A DNA stretch of 63,703 nt, filler included, from an uncultured Methanosarcinales archaeon (GTDB lineage Archaea > Nanobdellota > Nanobdellia > Woesearchaeales > UBA12501): the NCBI GenBank assembly GCA_964397315.1. It is 3 parts of 3 records of this genome, joined end to end, with 100 filler letters (N's around TTAATTAATTAA, not from the genome) between each part and the next. Parts side by side here need not be neighbours in the genome. Positions count along the whole stretch, not along the records: positions 1 to 27,343 come from CAYNHV010000002.1; 2 more parts are not named here. One strand, written 5' to 3'. The stretch's first letter is position 1. Every line of letters begins with the position of its first letter. The notes beneath the pieces are model-generated. The model was not told the DNA's origin. It searched no databases and saw only the letters and a program-made list of their open reading frames with translations. The translations under genes and the position numbers were made by a program. Shown here one piece after another: positions 4,971 to 27,343 of the stretch.

Positions 4971-4989
4971 AATTCCCTCCTTCACTTTT

Positions 4990-5493: not shown

Positions 5494-6653
5494 TTTTTCG
5501 CTTTAGTCATCACCTTATCAAGGTTTTTTGCTTTTATTGAGAGATAATCCAGGGCGTCGCTGTGGGTTATGAATCCCTTTTCCACGTTGTTCGAGACGAG
5601 GGAGACGAATTTCTGGCCTTTTTCGTTAAGGCATTTTTTATCTGCTTTCTGGGCGAACCCGGTTTGTTTTGATTTTTCCTTCGGCTTATCAATTTGGGGT
5701 TTATATCTATCAAGCACTGCTTCGTATTGAGATTTGGATATAAAGTTAAGCCTATGAATGTTATAGAGAAGCATGGCCTTGCTGACCTTGTATGTCCTCG
5801 ACAAGCTATTCAGTGTCTTAGTGTCCGTAAGGCTGGATTTCCTTTGGCTGAACTCACGCTTGGCAATGTCTTCCGGCAGTAAAAAGGATGTTGCAAAGTC
5901 ATTGCACCATTTTTCAACCGCTTCGGCCTTCTTAACAAAAAGGGCATTTTCCGGCATGCTTATGCCGCTTTCATTCAAGAGCACATGCCCGAACTCGTGC
6001 ATTAAAGTGAAAATCCTTGCTTCTATGAGGTCTTTGGAATTTACAACGATAACTGCGGGGTAGTCATCAACTAAAGTGAAGCCTCTTGCGTCATCTACAG
6101 GCATGGAGATCTGAAAGACAAGAACATTCTCATCTTCAATGAGGTCTCGCAGGTAATTAAAAACATCGTAGGAGTTTTTTAGTTTCGTTTGCTTTTCCTC
6201 GTCAAAATTTAACTCTTTCCTGTATTTTGCAGCTATTTTTTGGGGGTTGTCGGTTAGCTTTACAGTTGCCGTTAGCTTGTTGAGGCTGGCGCTCAGGTTT
6301 TCAGAGAGTTCCTTGCTTATATTCTGGAGCCTTCTTGCTCTTCTTATGGCGAGGATAGTCTTCTTGTCGAACTTGCCTTCCCTGTCCGGCAGCATCCTGT
6401 AATCCTTGGGCATTGGCTTTTCTTTCGGCGGCTCAGGAAGAAAAAAGACGGCCAGAGGCCTTTTGATGACGTTTGCCAGGTCTTCAAGTTGCCTTACGGT
6501 CGGTTTTACTTCGCCGGAAATCCAGCCGTCCAGTACATTGGAGCTTATTTTGAGGCGTTTAATAAGCTCTTCCCTGCTCCAGCCGGAGCGTTCAATAGCC
6601 CACTTTAGAACGGTTGGCTCTACATCAACATTCATTGACTTCTTTCCAGGCAT
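5490..6653 (-). CDS. XRE HTH plus ImmA/IrrE (M78) metallopeptidase
   Basis: N-terminal HTH; FTLMHEFGH zinc motif; EKWCNDFA. Confidence 0.9.
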   Translation of the reverse strand: MPGKKSMNVDVEPTVLKWAIERSGWSREELIKRLKISSNVLDGWISGEVKPTVRQLEDLANVIKRPLAVFFLPEPPKEKPMPKDYRMLPDREGKFDKKTILAIRRARRLQNISKELSENLSASLNKLTATVKLTDNPQKIAAKYRKELNFDEEKQTKLKNSYDVFNYLRDLIEDENVLVFQISMPVDDARGFTLVDDYPAVIVVNSKDLIEARIFTLMHEFGHVLLNESGISMPENALFVKKAEAVEKWCNDFATSFLLPEDIAKREFSQRKSSLTDTKTLNSLSRTYKVSKAMLLYNIHRLNFISKSQYEAVLDRYKPQIDKPKEKSKQTGFAQKADKKCLNEKGQKFVSLVSNNVEKGFITHSDALDYLSIKAKNLDKVMTKAKK

Positions 6654-6713
6654 TTTGGTTGTTGATTCTCCCCGATTAATAAAGTTTTTGCCAATTTCGA
6701 GATAGTCTAGCCC

Positions 6714-10730: not shown

Positions 10731-10876
10731 TTAAATACCCTCTTTGAGGGGGATGATATATTACGGGAGAAAAAAGTTCAAAATGGGTGTTTACTTGACT
10801 ATTTGTTTGCGTGTTTCAACTTGTTGTGGTATTTTTTTAACGAAAATAAGACTTGTGTAGACAGGGAGGTGAAATC

Positions 10877-11098
10877 ATGGGCAAAAACCAGCATGTGGTA
10901 CCTACCGAAGATGGCTGGGGAGTCCGCGGTGAGGGTAATGACAGGCTCACTTCTATCCATCCGACCCAACAAGATGCAATAAATAGAGCCAGGGGAATAG
11001 CTCAAAACGAACGGAGTGAACTTGTCATTCACAGACCAGACGGAAGCATCCGAGATAAACACAGCTACGGAAATGACCCGTTTCCACCGGAAGGCTGA
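10877..11098 (+). CDS. DUF2188 family protein
   Basis: HVVP..GW.V..EG...TQ..AI..AR......SELVIH..DG.IR...SYGNDPFPP; SD GGAGGTG. Confidence 0.85.
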   Translation: MGKNQHVVPTEDGWGVRGEGNDRLTSIHPTQQDAINRARGIAQNERSELVIHRPDGSIRDKHSYGNDPFPPEG

Positions 11099-11125
11099 AC
11101 GGCAAAAGGGAAATAGCTGATTGGT

Positions 11126-14100
11126 TTAGGCGGTATCCCAGAAATGAATACTTGCTAAGCGGGCTATTTCTTGTTTGACCTCTTCTAGTTGAATTGGAAG
11201 AAGTGCAAATTTAGTTTCAAGGTTTCGATTAAGTTTGCGCAACACATATTTTGGGCTTCTATTCAAAACCAGGCTTTCTATAATCGTTTTCAGAATTAGT
11301 AACCTTCTCTCAGTAGTCCCAGCTTCGAGCCATACCCTCTGCAATAAATTTGCAGCTACTTCAACGGCACTATCTTCCGTGACATCAGGACTTTCAATTG
11401 ATTTTAAAGTAAGTTCAGCATCGGTACATATGGTTGTACAATCTTTATCGAGTTGATGCCAAATAATATCTTCATCAACCCAAATGAATTTATATCCATA
11501 TTTAATCATTTCTTTAACACACTCTGAATATTGACCTGAAGTAATTATGCCCATTTCCTTAAAATAGTTAAGTGTGATCTGGCTCCAACAACCGGGAATT
11601 CTGTAATCATTTTGCGCTATATCTCGGAATCCTTGATCGTCACTAAGCAAAATAGCATTTCGTTCCTTACAAGCAACCAGTGCTCCAAATTGAGCCTCCC
11701 CCAACACCTTCCTGAGTTTTTTCCCATTCGTTAAAATTCCATCTAAAGCGCCAACGGCAGGGACAACTTCGCAGTGTTGCTCAATAAAGGAAATATGAGA
11801 ACTCAGTAATTCAGCAAAGCTATTTTGGTCTTCATTGGTATATTCATGATGAATGTATTTATCCCCCTTCTTGCTCAAAAATCCTTTTGGTCTTGGAGAA
11901 CTGAGATTTTGGTCGTAACAACGTTTAAATTCATCCAAGGTAAGCTGAGATACTATCAAGGGTCGTTTTATTTCAAGAAGTAAGCTTAAAAGCCCAGGTA
12001 TTGAGAAGGTTATAATAACAGTTCCATCAAGTATTATTTCATTGCTTCTATCGTTTAATACACTCTGAGCATATGCACGTTCAACAGTGCTTCCAGAAAA
12101 AACGAAAACTGGTTGGTTAGGCTCACTAATCATTGTCAGATGAGCATCAATAAGGGTTTTCCCTTTCAGCACCCCAATGGCACCAAGCGTAAGCTTTCGT
12201 TCATTATATATTTGGACAATATCACTATCTTTTTTTGCCCCCTCATCGATTATTGATAACATCTGAGAGAAATCATTGTCGGAAACATCAAAACTGTGCA
12301 CGCTTTGGTCATCAGGGAATGAATAATTAAATTCTGTAAGTACTTTCTGGAACGCTCTTACATATTTGGTTTGAAGTTCAAGAACTTTGTAGGTTTTTGT
12401 TTCTAAAGAGAACTCTTCTTCTTTTTTACAACCAATTAATTTCTGCGCTGCATTGGTATCAACAACCCATTTTGTAGCGATTGATTTTTCATCAGTATTA
12501 AAAACTATATGTATCCATATTTCTTTTCCACTATTGTCTTTTAATTTTACCATAATGTCCTCACAAACAGTATCTGGGGGGTCAAGCATCCCCCCATCTG
12601 AATCAGACCTGAGAAAAGTACCTATATATGCTCTTTGGATATGAGGATTGTCATACTCAACCATGAGGGCCTTATATGATAAATCGATAGCATCTTTATA
12701 CTTTCCAGTGAAAGAAGCCAGTTCTGCAGCCGCCATAAGCACATTTGCGCTATGTGGATGATTGTTGGCATATTCTATCATTGCTTTCGTAGCTTCATCC
12801 CGTTCACCCATCCTATATAGCGCGATTTGAGCATTAATTTGGTAGAACTCGTTTTCAGGGTCAGTTTCAATTAATTTAGAGAATAACTCACACGCTTGCT
12901 TAAACGCCCCTACACTCAACAAAGATGAGGCTTCAAATTCGGTTAAGCCTGGTATGACGGTTCCACCAGACTTTTCACGCTCCTCTTTTGCAATCTTATA
13001 GGCTTTTTCTTCATTGCCTATTCGAGTAAGTGAATCCATATATCTAGGCATAAGATGTGTTCCAATAACATTTACTTTTTCATACAAATCAACAGCATCA
13101 TCATATTCACCTATTTGATAAGCTGCGTTTGCAAGGGGAAGGATAGAATTCGTACTTGACTCAGATGGCAACATGCCAATAGCTTTTTTTACATCATGAG
13201 TCGCCTCTTTCTTTCTTCCTGTTTCCCAATAAGCTTGTGCCCTTAGTACGAGTATAGACACATCATCTTCTTTAATTTCCAGTCCTCTATTAAGGATATC
13301 TAATGCAAAGTCATATTCTTGTTCATCAATAAGTGCTCCGGCAATAAAAGAGAAATTATTTAAATCAACTGTCTCTCCTGGGGGCAGGCTCTTATCGAGA
13401 ATACTCTTTGCATCTTTGCTGAAACCATTTTTCAAAAGAGTCCAGAATCTTAAGTTCAGGTCTTTATATCCTTCACCAAGTTTATCCAGCTTATCGAGGG
13501 CTTCTTTAGCAATACTTGCTTTCCTTGATTGGAAACAAATTCGGATTTTGTTCCAAAGAGCATCAACATCCTCTTCGTTGTATTCAAGCACCTTATCAAT
13601 ATCTTCAAGCGCATTCTTAAGCTCGCCCATAAATAAACGACAAGCAGAGCGCGATTGATAAGCCATATATAATTTATGGGGCCTTGAGCTGAAAAGCTGA
13701 ATTGCTTTTGTTAATAGATGCTCAGCTTCATTACAACGTCGCATAGGTAGGGAATCATGTCTTTCTCCGTCTATATAGTTTCCTTCAAGTTCTATTTGTG
13801 CTTGTTGAAGGAATACCTGCGCTAAAAGGAGCATTGTTTGGGGGTCTTCTTCTAATTCCAAACACTGGTAAAACCACTTTTCAGCTGCTCCATAATCTCC
13901 CGTCTGCGAATATACGACACCAAGAGAGAAAGCAACATCTTTAGAAACCTCTTTGTTCTCGTATAGTTTCAATTCATCGAAACGTCCCTGAGAACCAAGA
14001 AGTCGTATGTATATAGCTTTTACTGCTTCATTTGTAGAGTCTAGCTCTAATGCTCTGTTTATTGAATCACTTGCCTTTTTTATTTCTCCACTCTGAAGCC

Positions 14101-14917
14101 TCATCATTACAGAATTTGTCAGTATTTTTATATCATTGGGGTTTAAAACAAGGCCTGATTCAAAGTGTTCTGAAGCCGCTTTGAAATCCCCTTCTTCTAA
14201 AAAACATAGTCCTAAATTATTTTCAATTTTCGCCCTAAGTTCAATGTTTGTAGCATCTTCTTTTTCAATATCTTCTTTAAGCTGCAAATACAATCGCTTG
14301 GCTTCGAGTGAATTACCACTCTGAAGTATTTCCCTTGCAGTTTCATGTCTTACTTCAAAAGACTTTTCATCTCCATTATATCGAGAGTCTTTTACTTTCG
14401 CCTCTCCAGTATGATTTAATAATGTACTTTCAAACTCATTAATTCTCGATAGAATCTTTTCTTCTGAATCTCTAGTTGCTTGAATATTTGCTCTGCCGAA
14501 TTCGGTCGTTCTTTCGCCATAGTGTTCGATGCGCCCTGCGAGGAATAACGGAGCATGATACGAAGTAAGCAGTTCTTGAATCATTGCTTTAATGAAATCT
14601 TCGATAATCTTGGTCGCGCTATCTATAGTCGTTTCATTATCAAAAAATTCCGAAATATGTACAAAAGACGAAACCAAGTCCGCAATTTTTAAATTGCCAT
14701 TACCAGTCACTATCATTTGTTTAAATTTTATGAAATCATTGGAATTAACCCATCCGCCAAGTTGTTCCCTCAATGAGGGAAATTGTTCATGTAGAATAGA
14801 GGTACTGTTGATGGCACGGTCAATGATTCCATCCATTTCAGGACCTTTTAATCTGGCATTTCTACACAAATTGAGAAGAAATTGAATAAGAGAAATTGTT
14901 GGTGACAGGATATCCAT
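11126..14917 (-). CDS. TPR-repeat protein with GreA/B C-terminal-like and PIN domains
   Basis: Long TPR array; AAQKLIGCKKEEEF...YKVLEL (GreAB-C-like); IILDGT, VSQLTLDEF, LLSDD (PIN-like). Confidence 0.75.
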   Translation of the reverse strand: MDILSPTISLIQFLLNLCRNARLKGPEMDGIIDRAINSTSILHEQFPSLREQLGGWVNSNDFIKFKQMIVTGNGNLKIADLVSSFVHISEFFDNETTIDSATKIIEDFIKAMIQELLTSYHAPLFLAGRIEHYGERTTEFGRANIQATRDSEEKILSRINEFESTLLNHTGEAKVKDSRYNGDEKSFEVRHETAREILQSGNSLEAKRLYLQLKEDIEKEDATNIELRAKIENNLGLCFLEEGDFKAASEHFESGLVLNPNDIKILTNSVMMRLQSGEIKKASDSINRALELDSTNEAVKAIYIRLLGSQGRFDELKLYENKEVSKDVAFSLGVVYSQTGDYGAAEKWFYQCLELEEDPQTMLLLAQVFLQQAQIELEGNYIDGERHDSLPMRRCNEAEHLLTKAIQLFSSRPHKLYMAYQSRSACRLFMGELKNALEDIDKVLEYNEEDVDALWNKIRICFQSRKASIAKEALDKLDKLGEGYKDLNLRFWTLLKNGFSKDAKSILDKSLPPGETVDLNNFSFIAGALIDEQEYDFALDILNRGLEIKEDDVSILVLRAQAYWETGRKKEATHDVKKAIGMLPSESSTNSILPLANAAYQIGEYDDAVDLYEKVNVIGTHLMPRYMDSLTRIGNEEKAYKIAKEEREKSGGTVIPGLTEFEASSLLSVGAFKQACELFSKLIETDPENEFYQINAQIALYRMGERDEATKAMIEYANNHPHSANVLMAAAELASFTGKYKDAIDLSYKALMVEYDNPHIQRAYIGTFLRSDSDGGMLDPPDTVCEDIMVKLKDNSGKEIWIHIVFNTDEKSIATKWVVDTNAAQKLIGCKKEEEFSLETKTYKVLELQTKYVRAFQKVLTEFNYSFPDDQSVHSFDVSDNDFSQMLSIIDEGAKKDSDIVQIYNERKLTLGAIGVLKGKTLIDAHLTMISEPNQPVFVFSGSTVERAYAQSVLNDRSNEIILDGTVIITFSIPGLLSLLLEIKRPLIVSQLTLDEFKRCYDQNLSSPRPKGFLSKKGDKYIHHEYTNEDQNSFAELLSSHISFIEQHCEVVPAVGALDGILTNGKKLRKVLGEAQFGALVACKERNAILLSDDQGFRDIAQNDYRIPGCWSQITLNYFKEMGIITSGQYSECVKEMIKYGYKFIWVDEDIIWHQLDKDCTTICTDAELTLKSIESPDVTEDSAVEVAANLLQRVWLEAGTTERRLLILKTIIESLVLNRSPKYVLRKLNRNLETKFALLPIQLEEVKQEIARLASIHFWDTA

Positions 14918-15156
14918 GCTAGTCCCCCACTCCAAAGCCTATACAGGTGTAATCAAGTACTTCGCCGATATTAAGATTTGGAACATTGTTTGCCAATATC
15001 TTAACTTTATTGAACCTCATATATCACCATAATAACTATCCTGATTATTTTTGGCAAATTTGGCCACCTGTTTCTTACACTTTTGATTCTCTCTGCTCCC
15101 TTCCCGCCCTTACTCCGCTTCCCTTTCCTGATTTTAGGGGCTGAGCGGCTTGTGTT

Positions 15157-15506
15157 TGTGCCAGGATTTTCTGTTTTTGTTTTTTTGAGGGGCCTGGGGG
15201 CCTTGTGATTTCCGGCTTTGCGGGCTTTTAAAATGTGCCAGGAATGTGCCAGGATTTGGTGAAATTGGTGGAATTTTTGGGGTTTTGTGGGTTGTGTGGA
15301 ATGCGGCAGCCGACCCGAAAATTTCAATTATTACGGTAACTTAGCGGATTTGATTGGTTTTTTGGATTTGGCGGAAAATGGCTCGTATCGCTTTAGAAGT
15401 CCGTTGCTCTATCCCCTGAGCTACAGGCGCTTTGTCTTTAGAATCAGTTACTTACGCTGTTTTTGATGGTGGCATTTTCTTGAAAATGTGCCAGGATGTG
15501 CCAGGA
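15157..15506. mobile_element. Putative attP of the integrative element
   Basis: TGTGCCAGGA at 15157, 15234, 15245, 15487 and 15497 flanking a tRNA-derived core (15393-15430); IHF consensus AATCAGTTACTTA at 15442-15454; directly downstream of int. Confidence 0.75.
15393..15430 (-). pseudogene. 5' half of tRNA-Arg(TCT) (att core)
   Basis: GCGCCTGTAGCTCAGGGGATAGAGCAACGGACTTCTAA covers acceptor 5' strand, D arm and anticodon loop; no 3' half follows. Confidence 0.85.
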
Positions 15507-15512
15507 TTTGCT

Positions 15513-16523
15513 TTAGATGGCGCTTTTGAGGTCTTCCTCGTCTATTGTGTCGTATCTGGTGAGCATGCTTATTGTCTTGTGTCCGGTTATTGCCATGATG
15601 ACCCTGTCCTGTTTTCCTTCTTTTCTTTTGTTGGTTATGAAGGTGTGTCTGAGGTCGTGGAATCTGAAGTCTTTGATGCCTGCTTTTTTGCATGCGCTCT
15701 TGAACGCTCTTTTTACTGATGCTATGGATTTTCCTGCGTAGGTGAAGACGCTGCCTTCTTTCCTTTTGCTCTGAGTGAGTGTCTCGTGGAGCAGTGTGCT
15801 GATGGGTATTTTTCTTGGCTCGTTTGTTTTTGTCTGCTCCGGCTTTAGTGTGATGAATCCGCTTTCCAGGTCTACCTGCTCCCATTGGAGGCTGAATATT
15901 TCTCCTGCTCTCATTCCTGTCTCGTGGGCTGCTATGAGTATGGGCTTGAGGTGCTTTGGTGATGCTGTAAGCAGTTTTTGGAATTCTTCTTTTGTGAGGA
16001 CTCTGTCTCTTTTGTTGTTCTCCTTCAGGAGCTTTATGTGTTTCATGGGGTTGTTTTCCAGTTTTTCGTTTCTTATTGCCCTGTTGTAGATTGTCCGCAA
16101 ACAGGCGAGTTCCTTGTTTATTGTTGCGGGTGCGGGTTGCTTGCCGTTGCGCATTGTGGATTTCTTCCTGTAGAGTATGTAGTCCTCTATGTGCATTGGC
16201 CTGATGTCTGCTGCTGGGCGGTCTTTGAAGAAGGCCTTGAGGTGTTTTATGCAGTCCTGGTCTCTACGCCAGCTTCGCTTATGAGCTTTGGCGTAAGTTA
16301 GAAAGTCTTCTGCTATGTCAAAGAACGTGACCTTGCGCTGCTGTATTCTTTTCTCGTATGCTCCCCCGCCGATGTCCATGATGATTCTGGCGAGGATTTG
16401 CTCTGCTTCGCGCTGGGTCGTGGCCTTTGTGGCCTTTCGGATGTCCCTGCCGAAGGGGTCATGGTATCTTACGTACCACGTGACCCTGCCGTTGGTTCCG
16501 GCTCGCTTGTAAGTGCTTGCCAT
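15513..16523 (-). CDS. int: Tyrosine recombinase / phage-type integrase
   Basis: TGMRAGE, KT, FHDLRHT, TGH, RY catalytic motifs; arm-binding-like N-terminus (WYVRY); SD AAAGGAG before ATG 16523. Confidence 0.95.
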   Translation of the reverse strand: MASTYKRAGTNGRVTWYVRYHDPFGRDIRKATKATTQREAEQILARIIMDIGGGAYEKRIQQRKVTFFDIAEDFLTYAKAHKRSWRRDQDCIKHLKAFFKDRPAADIRPMHIEDYILYRKKSTMRNGKQPAPATINKELACLRTIYNRAIRNEKLENNPMKHIKLLKENNKRDRVLTKEEFQKLLTASPKHLKPILIAAHETGMRAGEIFSLQWEQVDLESGFITLKPEQTKTNEPRKIPISTLLHETLTQSKRKEGSVFTYAGKSIASVKRAFKSACKKAGIKDFRFHDLRHTFITNKRKEGKQDRVIMAITGHKTISMLTRYDTIDEEDLKSAI

Positions 16524-16590
16524 TAGGCTGCTCCTTTCAACGAGCCGGCTGCCGCTTCCGTTATTAGTATAGCACGGGAGGGCATTTTTT

Positions 16591-16773
16591 TCAGTTCCTC
16601 CTGGCCTCCAGGATCTTTCTTTCAATGTCTTTTTCGCTGAAGCGGATGCATCTCCTGCCGTCATGGCCGAGGTCTATGTAGCTTATTCGTTTTTCGTCTA
16701 TCCACTTGTAGATGGCTGAGACGCTGACGTTGAGCATTTCCGCTGCTTCCTTTGCTGTGAGGAGCTTTTCCAT
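16591..16773 (-). CDS. xis: Excisionase-like HTH_17 protein
   Basis: LLTAKEAAEMLNVS...IYKWI...RF pattern, adjacent to int. Confidence 0.85.
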   Translation of the reverse strand: MEKLLTAKEAAEMLNVSVSAIYKWIDEKRISYIDLGHDGRRCIRFSEKDIERKILEARRN

Positions 16774-17638: not shown

Positions 17639-18712
17639 TTACTCCAGGTAGTCGTCTATGAGCTTCAGCTCAACGTTCTTTGAGGGCTGGATGCCTGTCT
17701 TTTTCATGGCTTCCTTTAATTCAAAAACAAGAATTGTCTTGTTGAAGCCGTTTTTGAGGTTTCTGTCTATGTTGTCCTGTATGTTTGTGGTGTGGATGCA
17801 CACTTCCACTGCAATAAGCCCTTCAGGTGTTTTTACTGCAACATCGCAGTCCAGGTGTTCCTGTTTGGCTTCGCAGCCGTTTTTTTCATAATATTCGGCA
17901 ATCCTTTTCTCATAGTAGGCATGTTTCAGGCCGCCTTTTCCTGTGTATTTTTTGCTCGTCTTTCCCAGTGCTTTCAAACCTTCTTTTTTTATGTCTGTGA
18001 GGCTTGCCGCTCCTCCCCTGCCTTTTCTTGTTTTTGCTGACTCTTTTGAGACAAGGCCTTTCATTATTAAGGTGTTGAGTGCCTTGTTTCCTTTTGAGGC
18101 TGAAAGGTTGAGCATTTTATAGCGCTCTACTGTGGTGAGGAAAGGGTGCTCGTGTATGTTTTCCAGAAGCATTCCGGCGTCTTTGTCAAAGTAGAATGAG
18201 GGGGCTTCCTTAACAGCTTTCAGTTCAGCTTTTGGAGTTGATTCTGTATTGTATGCTGCCTGCTCTCTTGGTATTACCTGCTTTTGCAGTTCTTTAACCT
18301 TTTGTCTGGCTTCAGGCTTGAGTATTACGGGTTTCTTCCTTATCTCGTCTGCCTTGTTGAATGCCTTGATTATGAACGGCCTTTGTATTCGTCTGGTTGA
18401 GATTATGGCGTGGTAGTTGGGAAGCTTTGAGATCATTTCCTGCTCTTCTCTTGAGAGGCTGCAGGCCTGGCCCATGTATCTCGCGTCTTCAGCATCTGAG
18501 AGGTTGAAGATTATTTTTGTGTAGGCTTCGCTTCTGAGGCTGGACAGGACGAGATGGGGCTGGTGTGTTATGACTACTGCGCCCACGCCTGAAGAGCGTG
18601 ATGTTGTGAACAGTGATGATGCTGTGGGGTATCCTATCATGGCCTGCTCGGCGTGTTTGCTGAAGGTGGTGTCACCTTCATCGTAAACAAGAACTGTGTT
18701 CAGTTTGCTCAT
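17639..18712 (-). CDS. C-terminal part of split HerA/VirB4-like ATPase (Walker B, wHTH, PD-(D/E)xK-like domain)
   Basis: VLVYDE, R..GVGAVVITHQP, E...CDVAV...IAVEV; ATGA overlap and SD GGAGGTG. Confidence 0.7.
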   Translation of the reverse strand: MSKLNTVLVYDEGDTTFSKHAEQAMIGYPTASSLFTTSRSSGVGAVVITHQPHLVLSSLRSEAYTKIIFNLSDAEDARYMGQACSLSREEQEMISKLPNYHAIISTRRIQRPFIIKAFNKADEIRKKPVILKPEARQKVKELQKQVIPREQAAYNTESTPKAELKAVKEAPSFYFDKDAGMLLENIHEHPFLTTVERYKMLNLSASKGNKALNTLIMKGLVSKESAKTRKGRGGAASLTDIKKEGLKALGKTSKKYTGKGGLKHAYYEKRIAEYYEKNGCEAKQEHLDCDVAVKTPEGLIAVEVCIHTTNIQDNIDRNLKNGFNKTILVFELKEAMKKTGIQPSKNVELKLIDDYLE

Positions 18713-19662
18713 TTTCTTTTGTACACCTCCGTTAAGTACTGGTAGATGTTTAAGCATATGAACTCCTGCGAATAATAATCTAAATCCGTGAGGTTTATGA
18801 TTACGAACTCGTGGGCGAGCTTTTCCAGGGGAAGCCCTTTGAGGCAGTCAAATATCTTCCCGCTCTTGTTGCTTAAAAGTCCGGCGAAGCGGTTTTCAAG
18901 AACTCCCTCGTACCTTGTTCTGGGGAGCTTTTTGATTTCCTCGTAAAGCTCGTAAACAGAGAATGGCCTGCCGTTGTGCTGCTTATCCAGCTTTTCAAGA
19001 AGGGTGCTTACCTGGTTGGCGCTTCCTTCGCGGAAGAAGAATACCTCGCCTGCAAGTTTTGTGAAGCGCTGAAAAACTATCTCTCTGTTATGCCCTTCAT
19101 GCCAGAGGGGATTTATTTTTAACGTGTCCGAATCAAGAAAAATTATCTCATCATTAATGTTGTAAAGGTAATCCTCATCAAGCTTCATTGTCTGAAAGAA
19201 AAACATCCCTATACGGTCATCTTCTTTCAATCCGTAAGTTTGATTGAAGCGGTGAATCTCGGACGCCAAAACGTAAAGTATATTGGTCTTGCCGCTTCCT
19301 GTTCCCCCAGCGATGAGGTTTGGGCATGTCAACTCAATGGGGTAGAGGCTGTAGACCGGCTGGTTACTCATAGGCTGGTTGAAGTCGTAGATGACCTGGC
19401 CCAGTTCCAGGGGGCCGTGGGCGTCTTCATGGTTGATTCGGTGCCTGTAGGGGTTTGGGTTCTCACCTGCTGTTGAGTTGGCCGCTATGGTCTGGGTGAG
19501 TTCTTTTTTCACGCTTTGCACGAAGGGTGATTTTTGGTGGCTTTCGTCGAGCTGAAGGAGCTTTAGCGCCTTGAGCGCTCTGCTGTCGCTCTCTTTGCCT
19601 GCGAGCTGTATGAGCTGGAGGAATTGAAACAGGAATGAGTTCTGCGGCGGTCTTGACTTCAT
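18709..19662 (-). CDS. N-terminal part of split HerA/VirB4-like ATPase (Walker A)
   Basis: LIAGGTGSGKT, KINPL, VIINL; SD AAGGAG before ATG 19662. Confidence 0.75.
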   Translation of the reverse strand: MKSRPPQNSFLFQFLQLIQLAGKESDSRALKALKLLQLDESHQKSPFVQSVKKELTQTIAANSTAGENPNPYRHRINHEDAHGPLELGQVIYDFNQPMSNQPVYSLYPIELTCPNLIAGGTGSGKTNILYVLASEIHRFNQTYGLKEDDRIGMFFFQTMKLDEDYLYNINDEIIFLDSDTLKINPLWHEGHNREIVFQRFTKLAGEVFFFREGSANQVSTLLEKLDKQHNGRPFSVYELYEEIKKLPRTRYEGVLENRFAGLLSNKSGKIFDCLKGLPLEKLAHEFVIINLTDLDYYSQEFICLNIYQYLTEVYKRK

Positions 19663-19667
19663 TGCTA

Positions 19668-20213
19668 TTACTCCTTGAGGAAGAGCAGGCTCAGCACTTG
19701 TCCTGTGAGCCAAAGTGTTAGTTTGATGGGGAAGAGCAGGATTGTGGTGGTTATGCTGATGATGTAGGCTCTCCTGCACATTGTCCTGCTGTTGAACTCG
19801 TGCCTGCAATTCCCGCATAGAAGCTCTCTGGAGCTGTGGTATTCGCATGATGCTGCTTCGCTGGCGTGCACCAGGCTTTTGCATTGCGAGCATGCACCAA
19901 GAATGTCCTTGTCCTCGTGTACAAGGTAGCCTGCTCCTGAGGTGTTGAATGAGCGGGTTATGGTCGTGTTCATGCCGCTTTCTGTTTCCTCGTCTATCTG
20001 CTCGCGGTCATACAAAATGCCCTCATTTGAGCGCGTGAGCCTGCCGATGCTTCGCCTTCTTGTTACAAGCTGCGGGTCAGGCTGCTGCACTGTTGCAGGT
20101 TGTGCTGTGTTGTCCTGGAGCTGCCATTGCTGCCCGCAGCTTTGGCATTGGAAGCGGCCTGTTTCAAGAAGCGCAAGGTTGTTGCTGCCGCAGAACGGGC
20201 ACTTTCTCTGCAT
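19668..20213 (-). CDS. Multi-Zn-finger protein with C-terminal membrane anchor
   Basis: CPFC...CQSC, CSQC...C..H...CGNC; hydrophobic C-terminus. Confidence 0.7.
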   Translation of the reverse strand: MQRKCPFCGSNNLALLETGRFQCQSCGQQWQLQDNTAQPATVQQPDPQLVTRRRSIGRLTRSNEGILYDREQIDEETESGMNTTITRSFNTSGAGYLVHEDKDILGACSQCKSLVHASEAASCEYHSSRELLCGNCRHEFNSRTMCRRAYIISITTTILLFPIKLTLWLTGQVLSLLFLKE

Positions 20214-20536
20214 TATTCGCCTTCCTCGTCTGTTTCAAAGGTTTCCTCTTGCTCGTAGGCGTCGTGCTCCTCTGTTTGCTTTCTTATCTCCTCCCATGCC
20301 TCATCATTCTCCATGTGCAGCAGCCTCTCATAATCAAGCTCTACACCCTCTTCCTCTGCATCGTTGAGGGTGCGCTTTACAGTTGAGAGGAGAACCTCAT
20401 CATTCGTGTTGGCCGGCTTGCGCCTGTCATTCTCCCTGCGGTCATTTGTTATGCCGTGATGGATGGAATTCTCCGGGAACTTCTTGTTGTTGAGTCCGGT
20501 GAGCTTGAGGGCCAGTTTTGCCTTTGGTTTTTTCAT
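20213..20536 (-). CDS. Hypothetical protein with acidic C-terminus
   Basis: Purine-rich SD before ATG 20536; TAATG coupling to the next gene; overlaps the E1 tail by 95 nt. Confidence 0.5.
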   Translation of the reverse strand: MKKPKAKLALKLTGLNNKKFPENSIHHGITNDRRENDRRKPANTNDEVLLSTVKRTLNDAEEEGVELDYERLLHMENDEAWEEIRKQTEEHDAYEQEETFETDEEGE

Positions 20537-21932
20537 TTCCTTCTCTCTCCTGCTTTTCGTTTGCTTTTCCCGGTTTTTTTGCCTGGTTTTTCTTTTTCGT
20601 GATTTCCCCGCATAGTGGGCAGTTTTCGCTTTTTTCAAAGTCTGCTGTCATCAGGCTCATCTTTTGCTGGTCGTAGAAGATGGCTTTCTGGCCTTTGAGG
20701 TTTTCGCCGAATACGAGCTTTATGAATTGTGAGATGGCTATGCTGCTGATTGTGCTGTTGAGGTGTATTACTGAGGGTGTGGGGGTTTCGTTTGTGCCCC
20801 GGATGTATCCTGCTTTTTTGTAGTCCTCGGCTATTTCTTCTGTGGTTTCTTCCTGTGCTGCTTCGCTGAGGTCTATTCCGCCGTAGCATATCAGGCAGCC
20901 TTCTCCCGGAATGGTGGTTCTTACCTGGCCTCCGGCGTGGTAGCCCTTCTCTTCTGGTATTATTTCGCTGGCAGCGTCTATGTATGGGATGTCGTGCTCT
21001 GTGGAGATTTGGGTGATGGTTTTTCTTGCTGCTTCTGAGTCCACGCATCCCATTATGACCTGGGCGCTGGTGAGGGTTTCAAGAGTTTCTTTGTCCTGAA
21101 CTTTTTTGTTGACGATAAAGGTTTTAATGTTGGGGTTTTTGTGGGTTGCGTATCTGGCTGCTACCTGCACTTTGGGCTTGCCGATGTCTTCTCTTGTGGC
21201 GTAGGGTATTCTCGGCAAATTTGATTTTTCTATGATGTCATCGTCTATCAGGATGATTTCTCCTTTTCCTTCTCCAACCCCGAGGCAGACGAGCTTCTGG
21301 AATACTTCTGCTCCGATGCCGCCTGCTCCTATGATTGCAACTGTTAAGTTCGGCAGGGCGTGCTGTTTCCAGCCGGGGATGATGTGGTGCCTTGAATACA
21401 TTGCATCTTTCTCTTGTTCCTTCGGCGCTTCATGGTTGTGCATTATGATGGAGGGGCTTCCGAGCACTTCTATTCTTTCCAGTGGAACGAATTCGTTTTT
21501 TGAGTAATTGAAAATCATTCCCGAATATGAGGTGGCGTGGCTGTTGAACACTATGAGGCTGAAGTCCAGGCGCGGCTTGCATTTTGAGAGGAACTCTGCG
21601 TTTCTTCTGCCTTCAGCGTGGTCTGTGCCGCTGAATGATGGGGTTTGCTGGAAGGGATGGCTGTGCACGTCAATCAGTGTGCTTCCGTTTTTCGCTGCCA
21701 CCTCATAGGCCTTGAGCTGGAATTCCTTTTTAGGCTCTACAAACGCGGCCTTGTGCGTTTTCATTTCCTTTTCATCCGGTATCAGTATTTCCTTTACCGA
21801 ATAAGCAAATGTGTCGGGATTGGGTTTTGTCTTCTCACAAAGGATGAAAAGAAATTGCTCCCTCTCATCACTCATGAGATGTTGTCTGATAATTTCATAA
21901 TCGCGGCTTGTCATTCTCAGCAAATGCTTCAT
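20442..21932 (-). CDS. JAB/JAMM peptidase fused to ThiF/E1-like adenylating enzyme
   Basis: E25, H90-S-H92, S101-x-x-D104; GAGGIG, DDDIIEKSNLPR, GKPKV, GCVD, CLIC and CPLC. Confidence 0.9.
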   Translation of the reverse strand: MKHLLRMTSRDYEIIRQHLMSDEREQFLFILCEKTKPNPDTFAYSVKEILIPDEKEMKTHKAAFVEPKKEFQLKAYEVAAKNGSTLIDVHSHPFQQTPSFSGTDHAEGRRNAEFLSKCKPRLDFSLIVFNSHATSYSGMIFNYSKNEFVPLERIEVLGSPSIIMHNHEAPKEQEKDAMYSRHHIIPGWKQHALPNLTVAIIGAGGIGAEVFQKLVCLGVGEGKGEIILIDDDIIEKSNLPRIPYATREDIGKPKVQVAARYATHKNPNIKTFIVNKKVQDKETLETLTSAQVIMGCVDSEAARKTITQISTEHDIPYIDAASEIIPEEKGYHAGGQVRTTIPGEGCLICYGGIDLSEAAQEETTEEIAEDYKKAGYIRGTNETPTPSVIHLNSTISSIAISQFIKLVFGENLKGQKAIFYDQQKMSLMTADFEKSENCPLCGEITKKKNQAKKPGKANEKQEREGNEKTKGKTGPQAHRTQQQEVPGEFHPSRHNK

Positions 21933-21945
21933 CTTGCTACTCCCT

Positions 21946-22557
21946 TCACGTTTTGGGGTTTTTCATGTCCGCCCTTATCATCTCTATTAACACTATCAGG
22001 TCGTCATAGTTGGGATCCCACTTGATGTTTTCATAGCACCACCAGGCCCAATAAGGGTCATCCCTGAAATTGCTTCCTTCGTGAAGGTCTCCGGGTTTTC
22101 TGCCGTGGTAGCGCAGGCTTGAGGGGACGAATATACGGTGGCTGCCCACTCCCGGCGGGGAGAGTGGGTAATCCGGCGGGATCTCTATGAGAATGGGGAT
22201 TCTGCTGAGGTTGTAGCCCGTGGGCAGGTGAACATCGTGAACTTTTATGTGGGAGCCGTCCTCTGAAACGTCCACGGGGCAGGCATAGGAGAGGGCGTCA
22301 ATGTGGTATAAGAGGGTGGGGAAAGGGGCGCTGTGCGCCCCTCCCCTTTTATGTGAGGGAACATCAGCGATGCTGTAGTCCTCGGGAAAAACAAAATTAC
22401 CGCTTGAAGGCACGAGCCGGTTACCACCTCCCGGTGCCTGCAGGACAAGAGACCTGTCGGATGGTATTCCGGCTGCCTTTCTCACGTCTTCAGACCAGAC
22501 AGTTCCGCTTTCGTTTGAGCGAATGTCAACTTCTTTGCCGTTCACAACTCTCCTCAT
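21946..22557 (-). CDS. Ubiquitin-like domain (ends KRGG73) fused to prokaryotic E2/UBC-like domain
   Basis: Internal di-Gly; LPTGYN, LIEIPPDYPLSPP, WAWWC174, WDP..DDL resemble Prok-E2 family E. Confidence 0.75.
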   Translation of the reverse strand: MRRVVNGKEVDIRSNESGTVWSEDVRKAAGIPSDRSLVLQAPGGGNRLVPSSGNFVFPEDYSIADVPSHKRGGAHSAPFPTLLYHIDALSYACPVDVSEDGSHIKVHDVHLPTGYNLSRIPILIEIPPDYPLSPPGVGSHRIFVPSSLRYHGRKPGDLHEGSNFRDDPYWAWWCYENIKWDPNYDDLIVLIEMIRADMKNPKT

Positions 22558-22799
22558 TTTATTACTCCTTTCCTGATGAGTTTTCTCTTGTTATACCTTA
22601 CATACCCAGAGGAGGCGGGCTTTTGAAAGCCCTGCCTTGTGGGTGCGACAGCCTGAAGCAAGGCCCTGAACTGCTGCAGCACGAACAGGGCAAGCTCGGC
22701 CAGCTTAACTCCCAGAAGGATTGTCAGGCAGCCTGCGACAAACCAGCACCCGAACCACATGAGCGCCTCGGAAAACTGAATCATTGCGTCAGCGTTCAT
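22554..22799 (-). CDS. Small single-TM protein
   Basis: SD AAGGAG; hydrophobic segment; ATGA overlap with Ubl-E2. Confidence 0.6.
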   Translation of the reverse strand: MNADAMIQFSEALMWFGCWFVAGCLTILLGVKLAELALFVLQQFRALLQAVAPTRQGFQKPASSGYVRYNKRKLIRKGVIK

Positions 22800-22815
22800 A
22801 GCAAAACTCCTTTCC

Positions 22816-23052
22816 CTAAATCGCTTCCTCAGAAGCATCTTCTGAGAAGCTTTCCTCTATTGGGTGCATCTGGCCTGGCTTAAGCTCAAAGATGACGGGC
22901 ACGTTATTCCCGGGTTGGAAGAAAGTGGCCATTTTTAAGGAGCCGCTGGAGCATTTGCCGGATTTGCAGGCCCAGAGCCTTTGGTTTTTGCCGCGGCATT
23001 GGATTTCAAGGGTTTTCTCGCCGCATTTGGGGCATTTTGCTTTGTTTTGCAT
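22816..23052 (-). CDS. Small Zn-ribbon protein
   Basis: CPKC...WAC....C. Confidence 0.65.
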   Translation of the reverse strand: MQNKAKCPKCGEKTLEIQCRGKNQRLWACKSGKCSSGSLKMATFFQPGNNVPVIFELKPGQMHPIEESFSEDASEEAI

Positions 23053-23091: not shown

Positions 23092-23361
23092 CTATTGCCT
23101 TTTCTTTTTGTTTGCTTTCTGGCCTTTATCACCTCCTCCCTGCTGCTTGGGGTATGTGTTGTTCCTTCCTGTTATTAGGCAATATTGGCATGTGCTCACA
23201 GTATGGCTTATAAGTTGCTGTGTGAGGGCAACATTCTTTGAAGCGCCTGATTTTGCTCCGTTTTTCTGCATTTGCCTTTCCCCGGATTTGCTCCTGATTT
23301 TCACCTTGCTTTCCCATAAGATTTCCTTAAGATTGGCCGTGATTGCTCCTGTATTACTCAT
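23092..23361 (-). CDS. Small basic hypothetical protein
   Basis: SD AGGAGG; start overlaps the upstream gene end; CQYC. Confidence 0.45.
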   Translation of the reverse strand: MSNTGAITANLKEILWESKVKIRSKSGERQMQKNGAKSGASKNVALTQQLISHTVSTCQYCLITGRNNTYPKQQGGGDKGQKANKKKRQ

Positions 23362-23767
23362 ATTCCTCCTGATAGCCTCCTTTCTTACGGGTGAAGGGAG
23401 CGTATTCATCAAGGCTTATATAATTGAATGGGAGTTCAGAAGAAGGCTTTTTCGTGGGTGGGTTCTCGACCACAAGCAGGTTGTTTTCAAGAAGTTCAGG
23501 GTTGAACCTGTGCCCAAGCCCGGTGAGGCATTCAATCAACTCACCGGCAGAATCCTTGCCGATTACCTTGCCAAGCCTTTTTCTAAGCTCAAACAGGGAG
23601 TTATCATCAATTTTTTCATCACCTGGGATATAGGGAAGCTCTTCAACCGTGAAGCTTAGATAATAAAGGAGCTTCAGAAGGGCAGCTGGCAGCTTGATGT
23701 ACTCCCCATTCTTGTAGAAGCGCCATGTTTTGGCGTTGAATCGGTATTTGGGGTTTTGTTGTGCCAT
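23354..23767 (-). CDS. OmpR/PhoB-type winged-helix DNA-binding protein (stand-alone)
   Basis: GEYIKL....KLL.YL, LFELRKRL, IECLTGLGHRF. Confidence 0.65.
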   Translation of the reverse strand: MAQQNPKYRFNAKTWRFYKNGEYIKLPAALLKLLYYLSFTVEELPYIPGDEKIDDNSLFELRKRLGKVIGKDSAGELIECLTGLGHRFNPELLENNLLVVENPPTKKPSSELPFNYISLDEYAPFTRKKGGYQEEYE

Positions 23768-24201: not shown

Positions 24202-25008
24202 ATGGAGTACGAGGGATTTGATAGGGAAGAAGCTAGAAGGTTGTTTGCTTACACTCAGGAAGTGTTTTTCAGCAGACCTAGGCCCATTACGGGATTAGAG
24301 GACAGAATTAGGGCACCACCTATTGTTGCGAATTTTGAACACTTAGAAAGGATTTGCCGTAAATTTGACTTGCCGGTAGATATTTTTTATGATAATAAGC
24401 AAGAGGTTGATCTGAATTGGAGGAATTTTTACGAGTTTTTGCTGGATGACAGGGTACCGTCTAACTTGAAGCGTTTGTCTGGGGAAACTTATCCGGTGTT
24501 GCGGACTGTTTCTCAGTTGTATGAGTCAATAAAGGATTTTGATTTGCCGAGAAATCGCTATCCATATAAGTCCGAAGATCTCGGTAAGCAGGTATATTTG
24601 TATGTTATGAGGACTGCACCATACACATCTCCTGATGAGTCAGAGCAGGTTGAGATGCTTAGCAAGGCGCTTTTCATGACGAGGGACGATTTGGCGTCCA
24701 GGTCGGGGTTAACAAAGAATTATATTACTCGTTTAGAGAAGGGTAACTCTAAGTTGAAGTGGGAGCATATGAATAGGTTAGGTAAAGCGCTTGGTGTTTA
24801 TGAGCATGCTACAGGCACATCAGACTTTTGTGAATACAAAGCTCACAGGCTGGATAAAAGATTCAGGCAATTTTTAAGCGATACCACTGTTCCATCTTTT
24901 AGCAGGGATAGGTTGCCGAGGGTGGAGCATATTCATCCAGACTTGAAATATTCGGTTACCGGAATGTATTTTCTGCTAAAACATTTTAAAGAAATGGAAA
25001 GGTCATGA
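24202..25008 (+). CDS. XRE-family HTH-containing protein
   Basis: MTRDDLASRSGLTKNYITRLEKG......MNRLGKALGV. Confidence 0.7.
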   Translation: MEYEGFDREEARRLFAYTQEVFFSRPRPITGLEDRIRAPPIVANFEHLERICRKFDLPVDIFYDNKQEVDLNWRNFYEFLLDDRVPSNLKRLSGETYPVLRTVSQLYESIKDFDLPRNRYPYKSEDLGKQVYLYVMRTAPYTSPDESEQVEMLSKALFMTRDDLASRSGLTKNYITRLEKGNSKLKWEHMNRLGKALGVYEHATGTSDFCEYKAHRLDKRFRQFLSDTTVPSFSRDRLPRVEHIHPDLKYSVTGMYFLLKHFKEMERS

Positions 25009-27343
25009 AGGACGCGAGTAAATTCCTTAAGCTTGTCCGAAAGGTTGTTGTCCTTAGAGATAAGCACAAATTTAAAGAAAATCAGCAGTATCGTATTTGT
25101 GAGTTGCTTTCGGACTATAATTTTCACACGTATCGAGAGATTTATGATTATTTAAGATGTATCTTGTGCGATGATGGCTCTCCTATTATCAGGACAGAAT
25201 TCGACGAACACAACATTATAGTTCAGATCAATAAAATTCAAAAGAAATTCAATGATTACTTTTTAGTCGGTGATGGAGCAGGTTCTAATCAACAAGTTAA
25301 GATATTACAATTTAACAAGCGGCAAAAACAAGGACAGGGAGAGAATGGTTGCCAATTATTATGGGATAAAAAAGTCATGCCGAAGCCTATTTCTGTTGCG
25401 AAAGAAGAAATTGGAAGCAAAAGAGGACCTGAAATTAATGACAAAGCGTTTTGGGAAGCGAAGTTTAAGGAATACTTACAAAAGCTTGTTGAAGATGAGC
25501 GGTTTTCTCGTTGGGCAGGGAAGGACAAGTACATCGAGCAGCAGACTCTAACTCCTGACAAATCTGAAAAGAAGAAGGATTTATTTGATTATGTTGAGAG
25601 AACAAAGGAATTCAGGAAAAGGGAATTGAAGGGTGAGGGTATTTCTCCTGAATCTTTCGGCTATATTTCCGGGAAGATTCTAGATTTTTTGGGGAAGGCA
25701 GAGAATAAGAAGGCTCTTATTGTTGGCGAGCCTGGTATTGGCAAGACCTCTGCTGTTGAGAAATATTTTTACGATGTTGCTATTGAAGAGTTGAGGAAGA
25801 GTTCCCCTCAAATAATTCCAATATTTCTCGAATCTATTTTCGCACGTAATAAATCATCCTTTTTCGATTTCATTATTGAAGGACTTGAGAACACTATTTC
25901 TGATTTCAGAAGTTTGAGTGAGGATAACCTTGACGATTTTATTGAAAATGGGCGAATCCTTTTGATATTAGACGGTTTTAATGAAATTACTAGCAATGAT
26001 TTAAGGGAGGACATTGAATGTTGGATAAATCGAGGTAATCATAAGAAGCTTAAATGCTTTATTACCACAAGGAAGTTTTTGCATCCCAAATTTCTGAATG
26101 ATTTTGAGCGTTTTGAGTTGCAGTATTTTGATAAAAACAGAGATATACGAAAATTTCTTGAAGTACACTATCCAAAAAAGGCAGCAGGCGCATTGAAACA
26201 AATTGAAAAGCAAAATCTCTTAGGATTGGCCAGCGTTCCCTTTTATTTGAACGCAATTGGAAAAATCTATCAACCGAATGAGGAGCTACCTCCGACTAAA
26301 GGGAAGCTTCTTGAAAGGTTGGTTGAAATCGAATATCTAAAAAAGCGTGAACAAAAAGATGTTGCACTTGACGATAATGACATCGCAGAGATTCTTCCCA
26401 TAATAGCCTTTAAAATCAATAGAAACAGAAGTATAAATTGGGAAATTAGTTTTGACCAAGACAGATACAATGCAATAATTAACGAGTTGCCTGCTGAACG
26501 AAAGCCAGGAAAGGATTTTAAGAATAAAACCATGAGAACGGGCTTATTACACAATGTACATAAAGAATCATTTTTTACTCACCAGATACTTTCCGAATAT
26601 TTCGCAGCATTGGAATTAAAAAGACGGCTTTTAGAGAATGAAGAAGGGCTGCGGGATGAAAAATTTCAGAAGGGTTATCTTAATTATCTTAAATGGACCG
26701 AACCAATATCATTGATGATGGGATTGATTGATGATTTGAATCATGAAAGTCGTATTGTTGTGATTGCCATGGAAGTCGACCTTCTACTTGCGGCAAAACT
26801 GTCCGGTTGTGTAAAGGAGGAACATCAGGACAACACGTTATCAGCATTACTAAGAAAGAAATTGGATAAGTATTCAACGATAGAGATATTGAAAGAGAAT
26901 CAAACAAAATATGCAGCTAATAGACTAACGAATATGTTTAATACGGAAGATAAATTACTTAAACATCTTATAGTTGATGCAATGCTATATATTGATTATG
27001 AATCTGTAGTTTCTGATATTGTTGGAATTATAATAGACAAGGATGAAAGTAGAATTGAACGAAAGTTGGCAATCCGGAAGGTGGGAGAAATCGGTGATAA
27101 ATCTGCTGTCTCTGAGCTTGTTGTTATTAGTAAAGACAAGGGCGAAGACAGTTCGGTTCGGAATTCGGCAATATACGCATTGGGGGAAATCGGTGATGAA
27201 TCTGCTGTCTCTGAGCTTGTTATTATTAGTAAAGACAAGGGCGAAGACAGTTCTGTTCGGGATTCGGCAATAAACGCATTGGGAAAAGTCGGTGATAAAT
27301 CTATTGCCCATGAGCTTGTTGGGATACTCAAGGATAAGGATGA
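25005..27343 (+). CDS. NACHT (STAND) NTPase with HEAT repeats, truncated at contig end
   Basis: GEPGIGKT, LLILDGFNEI, ITTR, LASVPFYL, FTHQILSEYFAA; ALGEIGD HEAT units. Confidence 0.9.
27082..27343 (+). repeat. 99-bp coding tandem repeat (HEAT units)
   Basis: Units start at 27082, 27181 and 27280; the first two differ at 6 positions; the contig breaks inside the array. Confidence 0.9.

Follow-up and report, generated by a model that had tools for sequence, protein, structure and literature searches.

The window examined here, a stretch of 63,703 nucleotides from an uncultured archaeal genome (GenBank assembly GCA_964397315.1), holds a two-gene ubiquitin-like conjugation module that is best classed as a Bub-related variant whose E2 has a cysteine. 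Two adjacent minus-strand open reading frames (ORFs), 13 nt apart, encode a ubiquitin-like protein (Ubl) fused to an E2 domain (21946-22557, 203 aa) and a JAB peptidase fused to an E1 (20442-21932, 496 aa). The reference system is Type I Bub (6E.1) of Citrobacter sp. RHBSTW-00271, made up of BubAB, BubCD and BubE with structures in PDB entries 9ea4, 9ea8, 9eae and 9eav, for which we draw throughout on the preprint (Ye, Gong, Chambers and Corbett; bioRxiv 10.1101/2024.11.21.623953; hereafter Ye et al.). Domain folds, motifs, conservation, gene order and natural splits are established here for the window module and its relatives. Taken as a whole, we consider it probable that this is a Bub-related Ubl conjugation module, processed and conjugated as outlined below, and that it sits on an integrative mobile element in the archaeal chromosome together with a HerA-like ATPase and an integrase. 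Judged from the alignments, the combination of a conserved E2 cysteine, Cys174, with a retained E1 tyrosine appears to be new relative to Bub. The features of the two genes are as follows.

21946..22557, minus strand: Ubl-E2 pre-protein gene, BubAB-like, 203 aa (PF14462, AlphaFold2, Foldseek)
22342..22557, minus strand: Ubl beta-grasp domain, residues 1-72, ending R71-G72 (AlphaFold2, VIA; G72 codon 22342-22344)
22318..22341, minus strand: variable linker, residues 73-80 (GAHSAPFP), with the predicted JAB cut at its start
21949..22317, minus strand: E2 UBC-like domain, residues 81-203 (PF14462; C174 codon 22036-22038)
20442..21932, minus strand: JAB-E1 fusion gene, BubCD-like, 496 aa (Pfam and PDB sequence match)
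21417..21932, minus strand: JAMM/JAB peptidase domain, residues 1-172 (E25, H90, H92, S101, D104)
20598..21371, minus strand: ThiF-type E1 adenylation domain, residues 188-445 (ThiF match; crossover-loop Y376 codon 20805-20807; two CxxC)
20445..20597, minus strand: JAB-E1 C-terminal tail, residues 446-496, lysine-rich and of low complexity (from the sequence; tails differ among relatives)

In the mechanism that we propose, the 203-aa pre-protein, composed of Ubl (residues 1-72), linker and E2, would be cut after G72 (less likely G73) by the JAMM domain of its 496-aa neighbour, freeing a Gly-ended Ubl and a separate E2. The ThiF-type E1 domain would adenylate the C-terminal glycine of the Ubl, which would then be transferred to crossover-loop Tyr376, as in Bub, passed as a thioester to E2 Cys174, where Bub uses a serine, and conjugated to lysines of target proteins. 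The precedent comes from Citrobacter, where purified BubCD or the isolated JAB cleaves BubAB directly after junction G229, as shown by Edman sequencing, the BubCD mutants E28A and D104A are inactive in this cleavage, the pathway runs through E1 Tyr370 and then E2 Ser333 with His335 and Asp299 instead of cysteines, and Y370F in BubCD abolished the conjugation product (bioRxiv 10.1101/2024.11.21.623953). In structure 9eae, Y370 faces S333. From these experiments we infer that cleavage and the need for the E1 tyrosine carry over to the window copy; the tyrosine-to-cysteine relay, the targets and the biological role are put forward by inference as well, and our guess is that the module serves the mobile element in conflict or defence. 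The cut-to-arm pre-protein was the main point of a preliminary description of this DNA, and because that mechanism is already published and proven for Type I Bub (Ye et al.) it adds little here; the general idea that the JAB cuts the pre-protein to arm the cascade agrees with the Citrobacter mechanism, but its further detail, a cut at a GG pair after G73, is less likely than a cut after G72.

The Ubl-E2 protein carries KRGG at residues 70-73 and WWCY at residues 172-175, the latter containing C174. Pfam Prok-E2_E (PF14462) matches residues 97-198 (E 6.9e-6) at 26.3 bits, or 27.1 bits in the genome scan, a narrow margin above the curated cut-off of 25, and the best sequence match among solved structures is Citrobacter BubB (E 0.02). 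An AlphaFold2 model built on a 100-sequence alignment has a mean predicted local distance difference test score (pLDDT) of 95.4, with a sole weak block at residues 71-80 (pLDDT 63), and a Foldseek search of the PDB with this model ranks Citrobacter BubB (9eae_C) first (E 5.3e-5, template-modelling (TM) score 0.71 on the target), followed by eukaryotic E2s. When modelled alone, residues 1-73 (pLDDT 92.6) show the strand and helix order of a beta-grasp, and their best Foldseek match is Citrobacter BubA(155-229), with E 5.6e-3 and TM 0.67. The same BubA segment comes first in VIA-align across 48,161 chains (Z 8.5, root-mean-square deviation 3.3, 70 aligned residues), ahead of solved multi-ubiquitin proteins (Z 7.9-8.4) and then ubiquitin, ISG15 and Fubi (Z 6-7). 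A Pfam scan of residues 1-73 gave no family up to E 10, so that a match to Multiubiquitin (which we take to be PF14452) is absent, and no NCBIfam model matches the 203-aa protein. The position and lengths of both ORFs and every motif named in the preliminary description were reproduced, and the beta-grasp and UBC folds that it expected in succession are borne out by the models and their structural matches; its 73-residue Ubl ending in KRGG stands as a motif, but the conserved domain end lies at R71-G72, with G73 variable.

Relatives of the Ubl-E2 protein were collected by a word-indexed search, which returned 8 proteins, and an exhaustive phmmer search of 1.84 billion representatives, which returned 129 at E <=0.001; conservation was counted in an alignment of all 136 collected proteins. 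Related loci were found by pattern scans, 10 in GTDB genomes, all of them metagenome-assembled genomes of Planctomycetota, and 38 in metagenomes, giving 48; a search of viral contigs with two peptide patterns returned no relative. In the 136-protein alignment, the G72 column is G in 50/52 and the R71 column R in 44/52 of the sequences covering them. Among aligned Ubls G72 is G in 33/33 with nothing conserved beyond it, and in the ORFs of the 48 loci plus the window the column is G in 43 of 45, the remaining two being unaligned. The linker varies in sequence and length among relatives, with tens of acidic residues in protein P0004. Ubl and E2 are separate adjacent genes at 32 of the 48 loci and one ORF at 11, with the Ubl side lost at the contig end in the other five. 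Free-standing Ubls end exactly at the conserved glycine in four of the representatives (P0075, P0079, P0118 and P0126), and split Ubls end exactly at RG in four of the 48 loci, most others carrying 1-5 extra residues. The domain boundary and the mature Ubl end are marked by these natural splits. Because most split Ubls carry 1-5-residue tails that need trimming, the conserved JAB would have a job even where there is no fusion. The release of Ubl and E2 in a 1:1 ratio, which the preliminary description attached to the cut, cannot be essential since about 32 of the 48 related loci encode the two separately.

These data bear directly on where the cut would fall. The preliminary description placed it at G73/A74 and held the GG pair to be conserved in homologues, which it is not: G72 alone is kept, and the residue at 73 varies widely, with L, Q, S, T, C, R, D, W and others occurring. 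A cut after G73 would leave an RGG end like that of ubiquitin, and the window Ubl does have RGG; G follows the conserved G in 6 of 45 Ubl ORFs, and two separate Ubls (P0130 and L041) end exactly in RGG. We nevertheless regard it as unlikely, given the variability of position 73, the eight separate Ubls that stop exactly at the first G, and the Citrobacter cleavage directly after a single conserved Gly (Ye et al.). As the GG pair is not conserved, cleavage after G72 is more likely than after G73, and conservation and split Ubl ends point to G72/G73 as the scissile bond. The co-folding check suggested earlier was run as JAB(1-172) with Ubl-linker(1-90), each with its own alignment, and gave weak support for the pairing: the complex scored 0.53 against 0.00 for the best of three controls, with at least 85% of contacts agreeing between runs and partner pLDDT of at least 73. 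The mark applied to this score was reached by 116/157 solved complexes and 2/215 mismatched pairs, and scores <=0.60 were given to just 18 of the 157 solved complexes and to both of the mismatches that passed. As JAB-Ubl complexes are already solved (e.g. 8tyx), the pass may reflect likeness to known structures.

A fusion that is never cleaved, with the beta-grasp acting as a cis docking or regulatory domain of the E2 while another protein is conjugated, has its parallel in the never-conjugated Ubl domains that are common in eukaryotic enzymes, but we think this very improbable for the window protein. In most relatives the same domain is a separate small gene ending at or just after RG, the linker is variable and modelled with low confidence, an active-looking JAB is always attached to the E1, and Pfam and family scans found no other Ubl candidate in the window gene array.

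The motifs of the JAB-E1 protein are E25, H90-S-H92 and S101-G-T-D104 in the JAB and GAGGIG (202-207), SNLPR (237-241), CLIC (346-349) and CPLC (438-441) in the E1. Pfam reports a single ThiF domain at residues 188-439 (E 5.9e-38), and Prok-JAB is matched at E 1.6e-4 and 22 bits, under the cut-off of 25. The best PDB sequence match is Citrobacter BubCD over residues 7-408 (E 1.6e-22), and Pfam and folds together uphold the architecture described earlier, Ubl fused to E2 and JAB to E1. E25, H90, H92, S101 and D104 and the adenylation residues are invariant (10/10) in a 10-sequence alignment; in a wider set the JAMM residues are kept in 46/46 to 49/49 of the ORFs covering each, with one exception each at S101 and D104. 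Y376, within GYIRG, aligns with the GYITG tyrosine of Citrobacter BubCD at chain residue 372, which we read as the catalytic Y370, allowing for the 2 residues that the chain has over the native protein. This column is Y in all 40 JAB-E1 ORFs that cover it (from 51 ORFs, fragments included), and crossover-loop cysteines are sporadic, occurring in 10 ORFs at non-equivalent positions, so that the E1 has the Bub-type invariant crossover-loop tyrosine with no conserved catalytic cysteine. The JAB-E1 gene lies downstream of E2 in 39 of 48 loci, and in 8 of the 9 others the contig ends within ~200 nt of the E2 stop. PADLOC returned generic E1-E2 models and a partial BilD match (E 1.2e-6, residues 198-309).

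That the E1 would instead activate the beta-grasp protein for thiocarboxylate formation rather than tagging, as with SAMP- or ThiS-type sulfur carriers, is extremely unlikely even though the host is an archaeon and the best NCBIfam matches of the JAB-E1 are UbaA, ThiF and MoeB: all of these fall far below threshold (NF047750 UbaA at 96.7 bits against a cut-off of 450), which, like the presence of an E2, speaks against archaeal SAMP/UbaA membership, Pfam and NCBIfam scans of the E1 gave Prok-JAB and ThiF-type matches only with no sulfurtransferase domain, every related locus includes a JAB and an E2 with the conserved cysteine, the nearest relative of solved structure is BubCD and not ThiF or MoeB, and the module lies on a mobile element, not among cofactor genes.

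In the Ubl conjugation module that we favour, the E2 nucleophile is what sets the window protein apart. A HMMER alignment to Citrobacter BubB places C174 at S333, E176/N177 at H335 and G136 at D299; a second profile alignment, in which SRH and SWH triplets fall in the CYE columns, and the fold match both agree with C174 as the equivalent of S333. Of 92 representatives, 85 have C in this column, 5 have S, 1 has T and 1 has R. A combined set of 56 E2-profile ORFs, drawn from the window, the plasmid loci and the 48 related loci, gives the triplets CYE (31), CYQ (10), CIH (3), CFE (2), CYS (2), CYL (1), SWH (1) and SRH (1), with three gaps and two misaligned or non-catalytic rows. The window E2 thus has no catalytic Ser with His and Asp; Bub is described as free of catalytic cysteines and its E2 serine is called invariant (Ye et al.).

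To place these loci, comparators were taken from a tblastn search of plasmids with the JAB-E1 query. Canonical plasmid loci with an annotated DUF6527 came from Oscillatoria (a locus listed in Ye et al.), Pontibacter, Bradyrhizobium and Rhizobium, and their E2s read S-R-H or S-W-H. As an aside, the Bradyrhizobium (L054:5307-6896) and Rhizobium (L062:5328-6794) Bub operons have an extra gene of ~490-530 aa between JAB-E1 and DUF6527, annotated as a phosphotransferase in Rhizobium and a hypothetical protein in Bradyrhizobium. Haloarchaeal plasmid loci were found in Salinigranum marinum (NZ_CP100464.1), Natribaculum luteum (NZ_CP095398.1) and Natrinema sp. (NZ_CP082247.1), annotated merely as E2/UBC family or hypothetical, plus ThiF family. 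The Natribaculum luteum plasmid locus also has two Ubl-like genes and, beside its C-I-H E2, a second E2-like paralogue (L057:2551-2985) with V-D-V at the catalytic column, which may be a partner resembling ubiquitin E2 variants (UEV-like). In a quick maximum-likelihood tree of 39 JAB-E1 proteins (12 ORFs <430 aa left out; midpoint root for drawing only), the window groups with metagenome loci L016 and L018 (SH-aLRT 100; 51% identity to L018), this group is nested in a 30-row C-Y-type clade (SH-aLRT 100), and the C-Y-type clade is sister to the haloarchaeal C-I-H clade (SH-aLRT 84), with the DUF6527-bearing rows outside both. We found no description of a cysteine-type Bub branch in the literature searched, where BubCD and DUF6527 are mentioned only in the Corbett preprints and BubAB otherwise only in unrelated animal genetics; a journal version of the preprint may exist.

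The second departure from Bub is that no BubE, the DUF6527 serine protease encoded in Bub operons, was found. A PF20137 search of the genome, which is 93% complete, gave at best E 0.13, on another contig and with an internal stop codon, and a copy may lie elsewhere. Our own BubE profile, built from the four annotated plasmid copies, gave no match below E 0.08 across the window and the 48 related loci, and in three host genomes of related loci the sole DUF6527 match is an unlinked copy on another contig of the host of L012. To compare nucleophile and BubE more widely, we surveyed 401 sampled Planctomycetota genomes, 16 of which have PF14462. Eight are strong matches with an adjacent DUF6527, six reading S-R-H and two with motifs that the pattern left unresolved; four are S-[WF]-H loci without DUF6527 anywhere in the genome (L079-L082, in G579, G594, G372 and G548), all carrying JAB-E1; and three Cys-type loci and one unresolved locus are without DUF6527. 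The four BubE-less S-[WF]-H loci rule out a strict rule that loci are Cys-type if and only if BubE is missing, and because serine-type loci also do without DUF6527, the loss of BubE is wider than the Cys branch. The published Bub catalogue is headed 'DUF6527-containing operons' (Table S1, bioRxiv 10.1101/2024.11.21.623953), and having been gathered through DUF6527 it would miss all BubE-less loci by construction, so that the serine-type BubE-less group (L079-L082) also lies outside it. A word search of Table S1 turned up one Type II entry, 'Uncultured Crenarchaeota', and no name from Planctomycetota or Pirellulales.

A tentative proposal is that these loci represent an undescribed lineage next to Bub with mixed chemistry, in which a tyrosine ester at E1 Y376 might be followed by a thioester at E2 C174 in systems lacking BubE, and which may be standard cargo of elements with an integrase and a HerA ATPase in Planctomycetota and Archaea. 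The genes that accompany the window module are as follows.

22554..22838, minus strand: small hydrophobic ORF, 94 aa, possible accessory gene (position only)
17639..19893, minus strand: HerA/FtsK-like ATPase in two overlapping frames, 394 aa and 372 aa (profile match)
15513..16664, minus strand: tyrosine integrase, end of the same-strand gene array (PF00589, E 3.2e-26)

All genes from 23767 down to 15513 are on the minus strand, in the order 137-aa ORF, zinc-ribbon ORF, hydrophobic 94-aa ORF, Ubl-E2, JAB-E1, zinc-ribbon/hydrophobic ORF, HerA/FtsK-like ATPase, small ORF, AAA_33 P-loop protein and tyrosine integrase, and the stop of the 94-aa ORF and the start of Ubl-E2 overlap in ATGA. Related loci run from the ATPase through a small two-helix membrane protein and Ubl/E2 to JAB-E1, often followed downstream by a helix-turn-helix (HTH) excisionase-like gene and then an integrase. 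A profile of the relatives' ATPase matches 18 of the 48 related loci and both window ORFs (372 aa, E 1.4e-8; 394 aa, E 2e-4), and a single 759-aa homologue in L041 spans both frames, the window gene reading in frame -2 to ~18733 and in frame -1 from ~18724, which indicates a frameshift, assembly error or decay near an A-rich stretch. The small two-helix membrane protein is present in 14 of 48 loci at the position of the window 94-aa ORF, with no sequence similarity between the two, and homologous integrases adjoin the module in five of the 10 genome loci and in L016. Four neighbouring ORFs (22554-22838, 22816-23052, 19668-20213 and 23354-23767) gave generic zinc ribbons at most in family scans and have no homologue beside related modules; none is claimed as a module part, except the 94-aa ORF by position alone. 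No attachment-site repeats were found around 15.5-24 kb, nor any tRNAs or Rfam matches in the window. Just downstream of the integrase gene, at 15157-15512, lie three copies of TGTGCCAGGATTT, two of which share a longer flank; these could be integrase arm or attachment sites, and the opposite end of the element yielded no repeat that matches them.

The host is archaeal: the small subunit (SSU) rRNA of the genome scores 1412 bits with the archaeal model and 1070 bits with the bacterial one, and the contig of the module, C2, carries the archaeal genes for ribosomal protein S3ae, class I archaeal lysyl-tRNA synthetase, TYW1 and XerA. A sample of 300 further genomes from this class contained no JAB-E1 at E <=1e-20, and the module was therefore probably acquired horizontally. 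Several other observations concern this genome. The window holds 176 N, and only positions 1-27343 belong to contig C2 (C2:87167-114509). Defence-island-like surroundings extend over 3396-14935 and 25005-27343. They encode a WD40 protein, DUF4411 together with HTH-IrrE (M78), a restriction-modification protein of the Eco57I/MmeI type (1338 aa), a TPR-PIN protein of TPR-GreAB-C-PIN type (1269 aa), and a NACHT-HEAT protein interrupted at 27344 by the N gap; tandem 99-nt repeats at 26983-27339, with copies 94% identical, encode the HEAT/PBS-lyase repeats that end the NACHT protein. On the same contig, ~6-12 kb upstream of the window, a second XerA-like integrase and a CedD-like ATPase (L065:7930-9255 and 12278-14320) may represent another integrated element. 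An intein (N-terminal splicing region, residues 443-521) lies within the DNA gyrase B gene of this archaeal contig (L063:1517-3925, minus strand), and the SSU rRNA match (L013, G000:C8:868-2515) covers 1648 nt for 1478 model positions, so that this gene may carry an insertion or intron.

Several points weigh against the proposed mechanism and its setting. Support for the window copy is computational throughout, and the alignment of C174 to S333 is weak on its own (E 0.02). As two Bub hallmarks, the E2 Ser/His/Asp set and BubE, are missing, the Bub mechanism is not simply transferable, and transfer from a tyrosine ester to a cysteine was not found for any system in the literature searched. The RGG ends of P0130 and L041 lend some weight to G73 as the cut site. 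With its ATPase in two frames the element may be decaying, though the two core genes are intact, and Bub operons gave no phage protection in E. coli (Ye et al.).

The interest of the module lies in what it adds to Bub. The window and ~50 related loci form a sister group outside the Bub catalogue, with a conserved E2 cysteine and a retained E1 tyrosine, and this branch allows a direct test of the extent and evolution of oxyester chemistry. If the hybrid lineage is real, it would be a living intermediate between thioester ubiquitination and all-oxyester Bub and would show which of the enzymes switched nucleophile first. With it, a Bub-type module is placed on the chromosome of an archaeon, and the recurring backbone of ATPase, small membrane protein and integrase may help to find the biological role of these pathways.

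Among known systems, the antiphage Bil operons (BilABCD) share the Ubl, E2, JAB and E1 parts, and the Bil JAB likewise pre-processes its Ubl to expose a C-terminal Gly (Chambers et al. 2023 preprint; Ye et al.). The window module differs in having a single adenylation domain, a JAB that is part of a fusion, and no catalytic Cys domain, and we rejected Bil membership on this E1 architecture, the BilD match being partial; of the Bil/Bub-type family named in the preliminary description, the Bub side holds and the Bil side does not. Class 6e combines a Ubl or polyUbl, in some cases joined to an E2-like domain, with a JAB-E1 fusion, an 'inactive E2/RWD-like' domain without a conserved cysteine and a metal-binding protein (Iyer, Burroughs and Aravind 2006, PMC1779556). 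The window shares the Ubl-E2 and JAB-E1 fusions, but its E2 cysteine is present and conserved and a metal-binding protein was not found. The haloarchaeal loci agree with the window in the position of the E2 Cys (within C-I-H), in a JAB-E1 that keeps the tyrosine and in having no DUF6527 by our BubE profile. In their separate Ubls a conserved FG stands either last or 2-6 residues from the end, and one of the four stops exactly at G. They differ from the window in other neighbours, in a Ubl and E2 that are unfused in all three loci, and in His at +2 after Cys, resembling the S-x-H of Bub, where the window reads C-Y-E.

From Bub itself the window module departs in the E2 (Cys174 for Ser333, E176/N177 for His335, G136 for Asp299), in having no DUF6527/BubE detected in window or genome, in a Ubl that is a single beta-grasp undetected by Pfam Multiubiquitin, in two CxxC pairs of the E1 that are absent from the aligned Citrobacter stretch, in having no CapH/CapP or CapW gene adjoining the module, and in the placement of its JAB-E1 in a separate, well-supported clade. 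Three of the five features that we used to define Bub are present, the E2 Ser/His/Asp set and BubE being the two that are not. Shared with Bub are a Ubl-E2 pre-protein with a conserved junction glycine, a JAB with a full JAMM motif fused to an E1, a single ThiF-like adenylation domain whose crossover loop has an invariant tyrosine, the occurrence of both fused and split Ubl/E2 forms within the family (for Bub, Table S1 of Ye et al.), and location on mobile elements; for each of the three domains, the best match of solved structure is a Citrobacter Bub protein. The module is real and intact, and its processing and activation in all likelihood follow Type I Bub.

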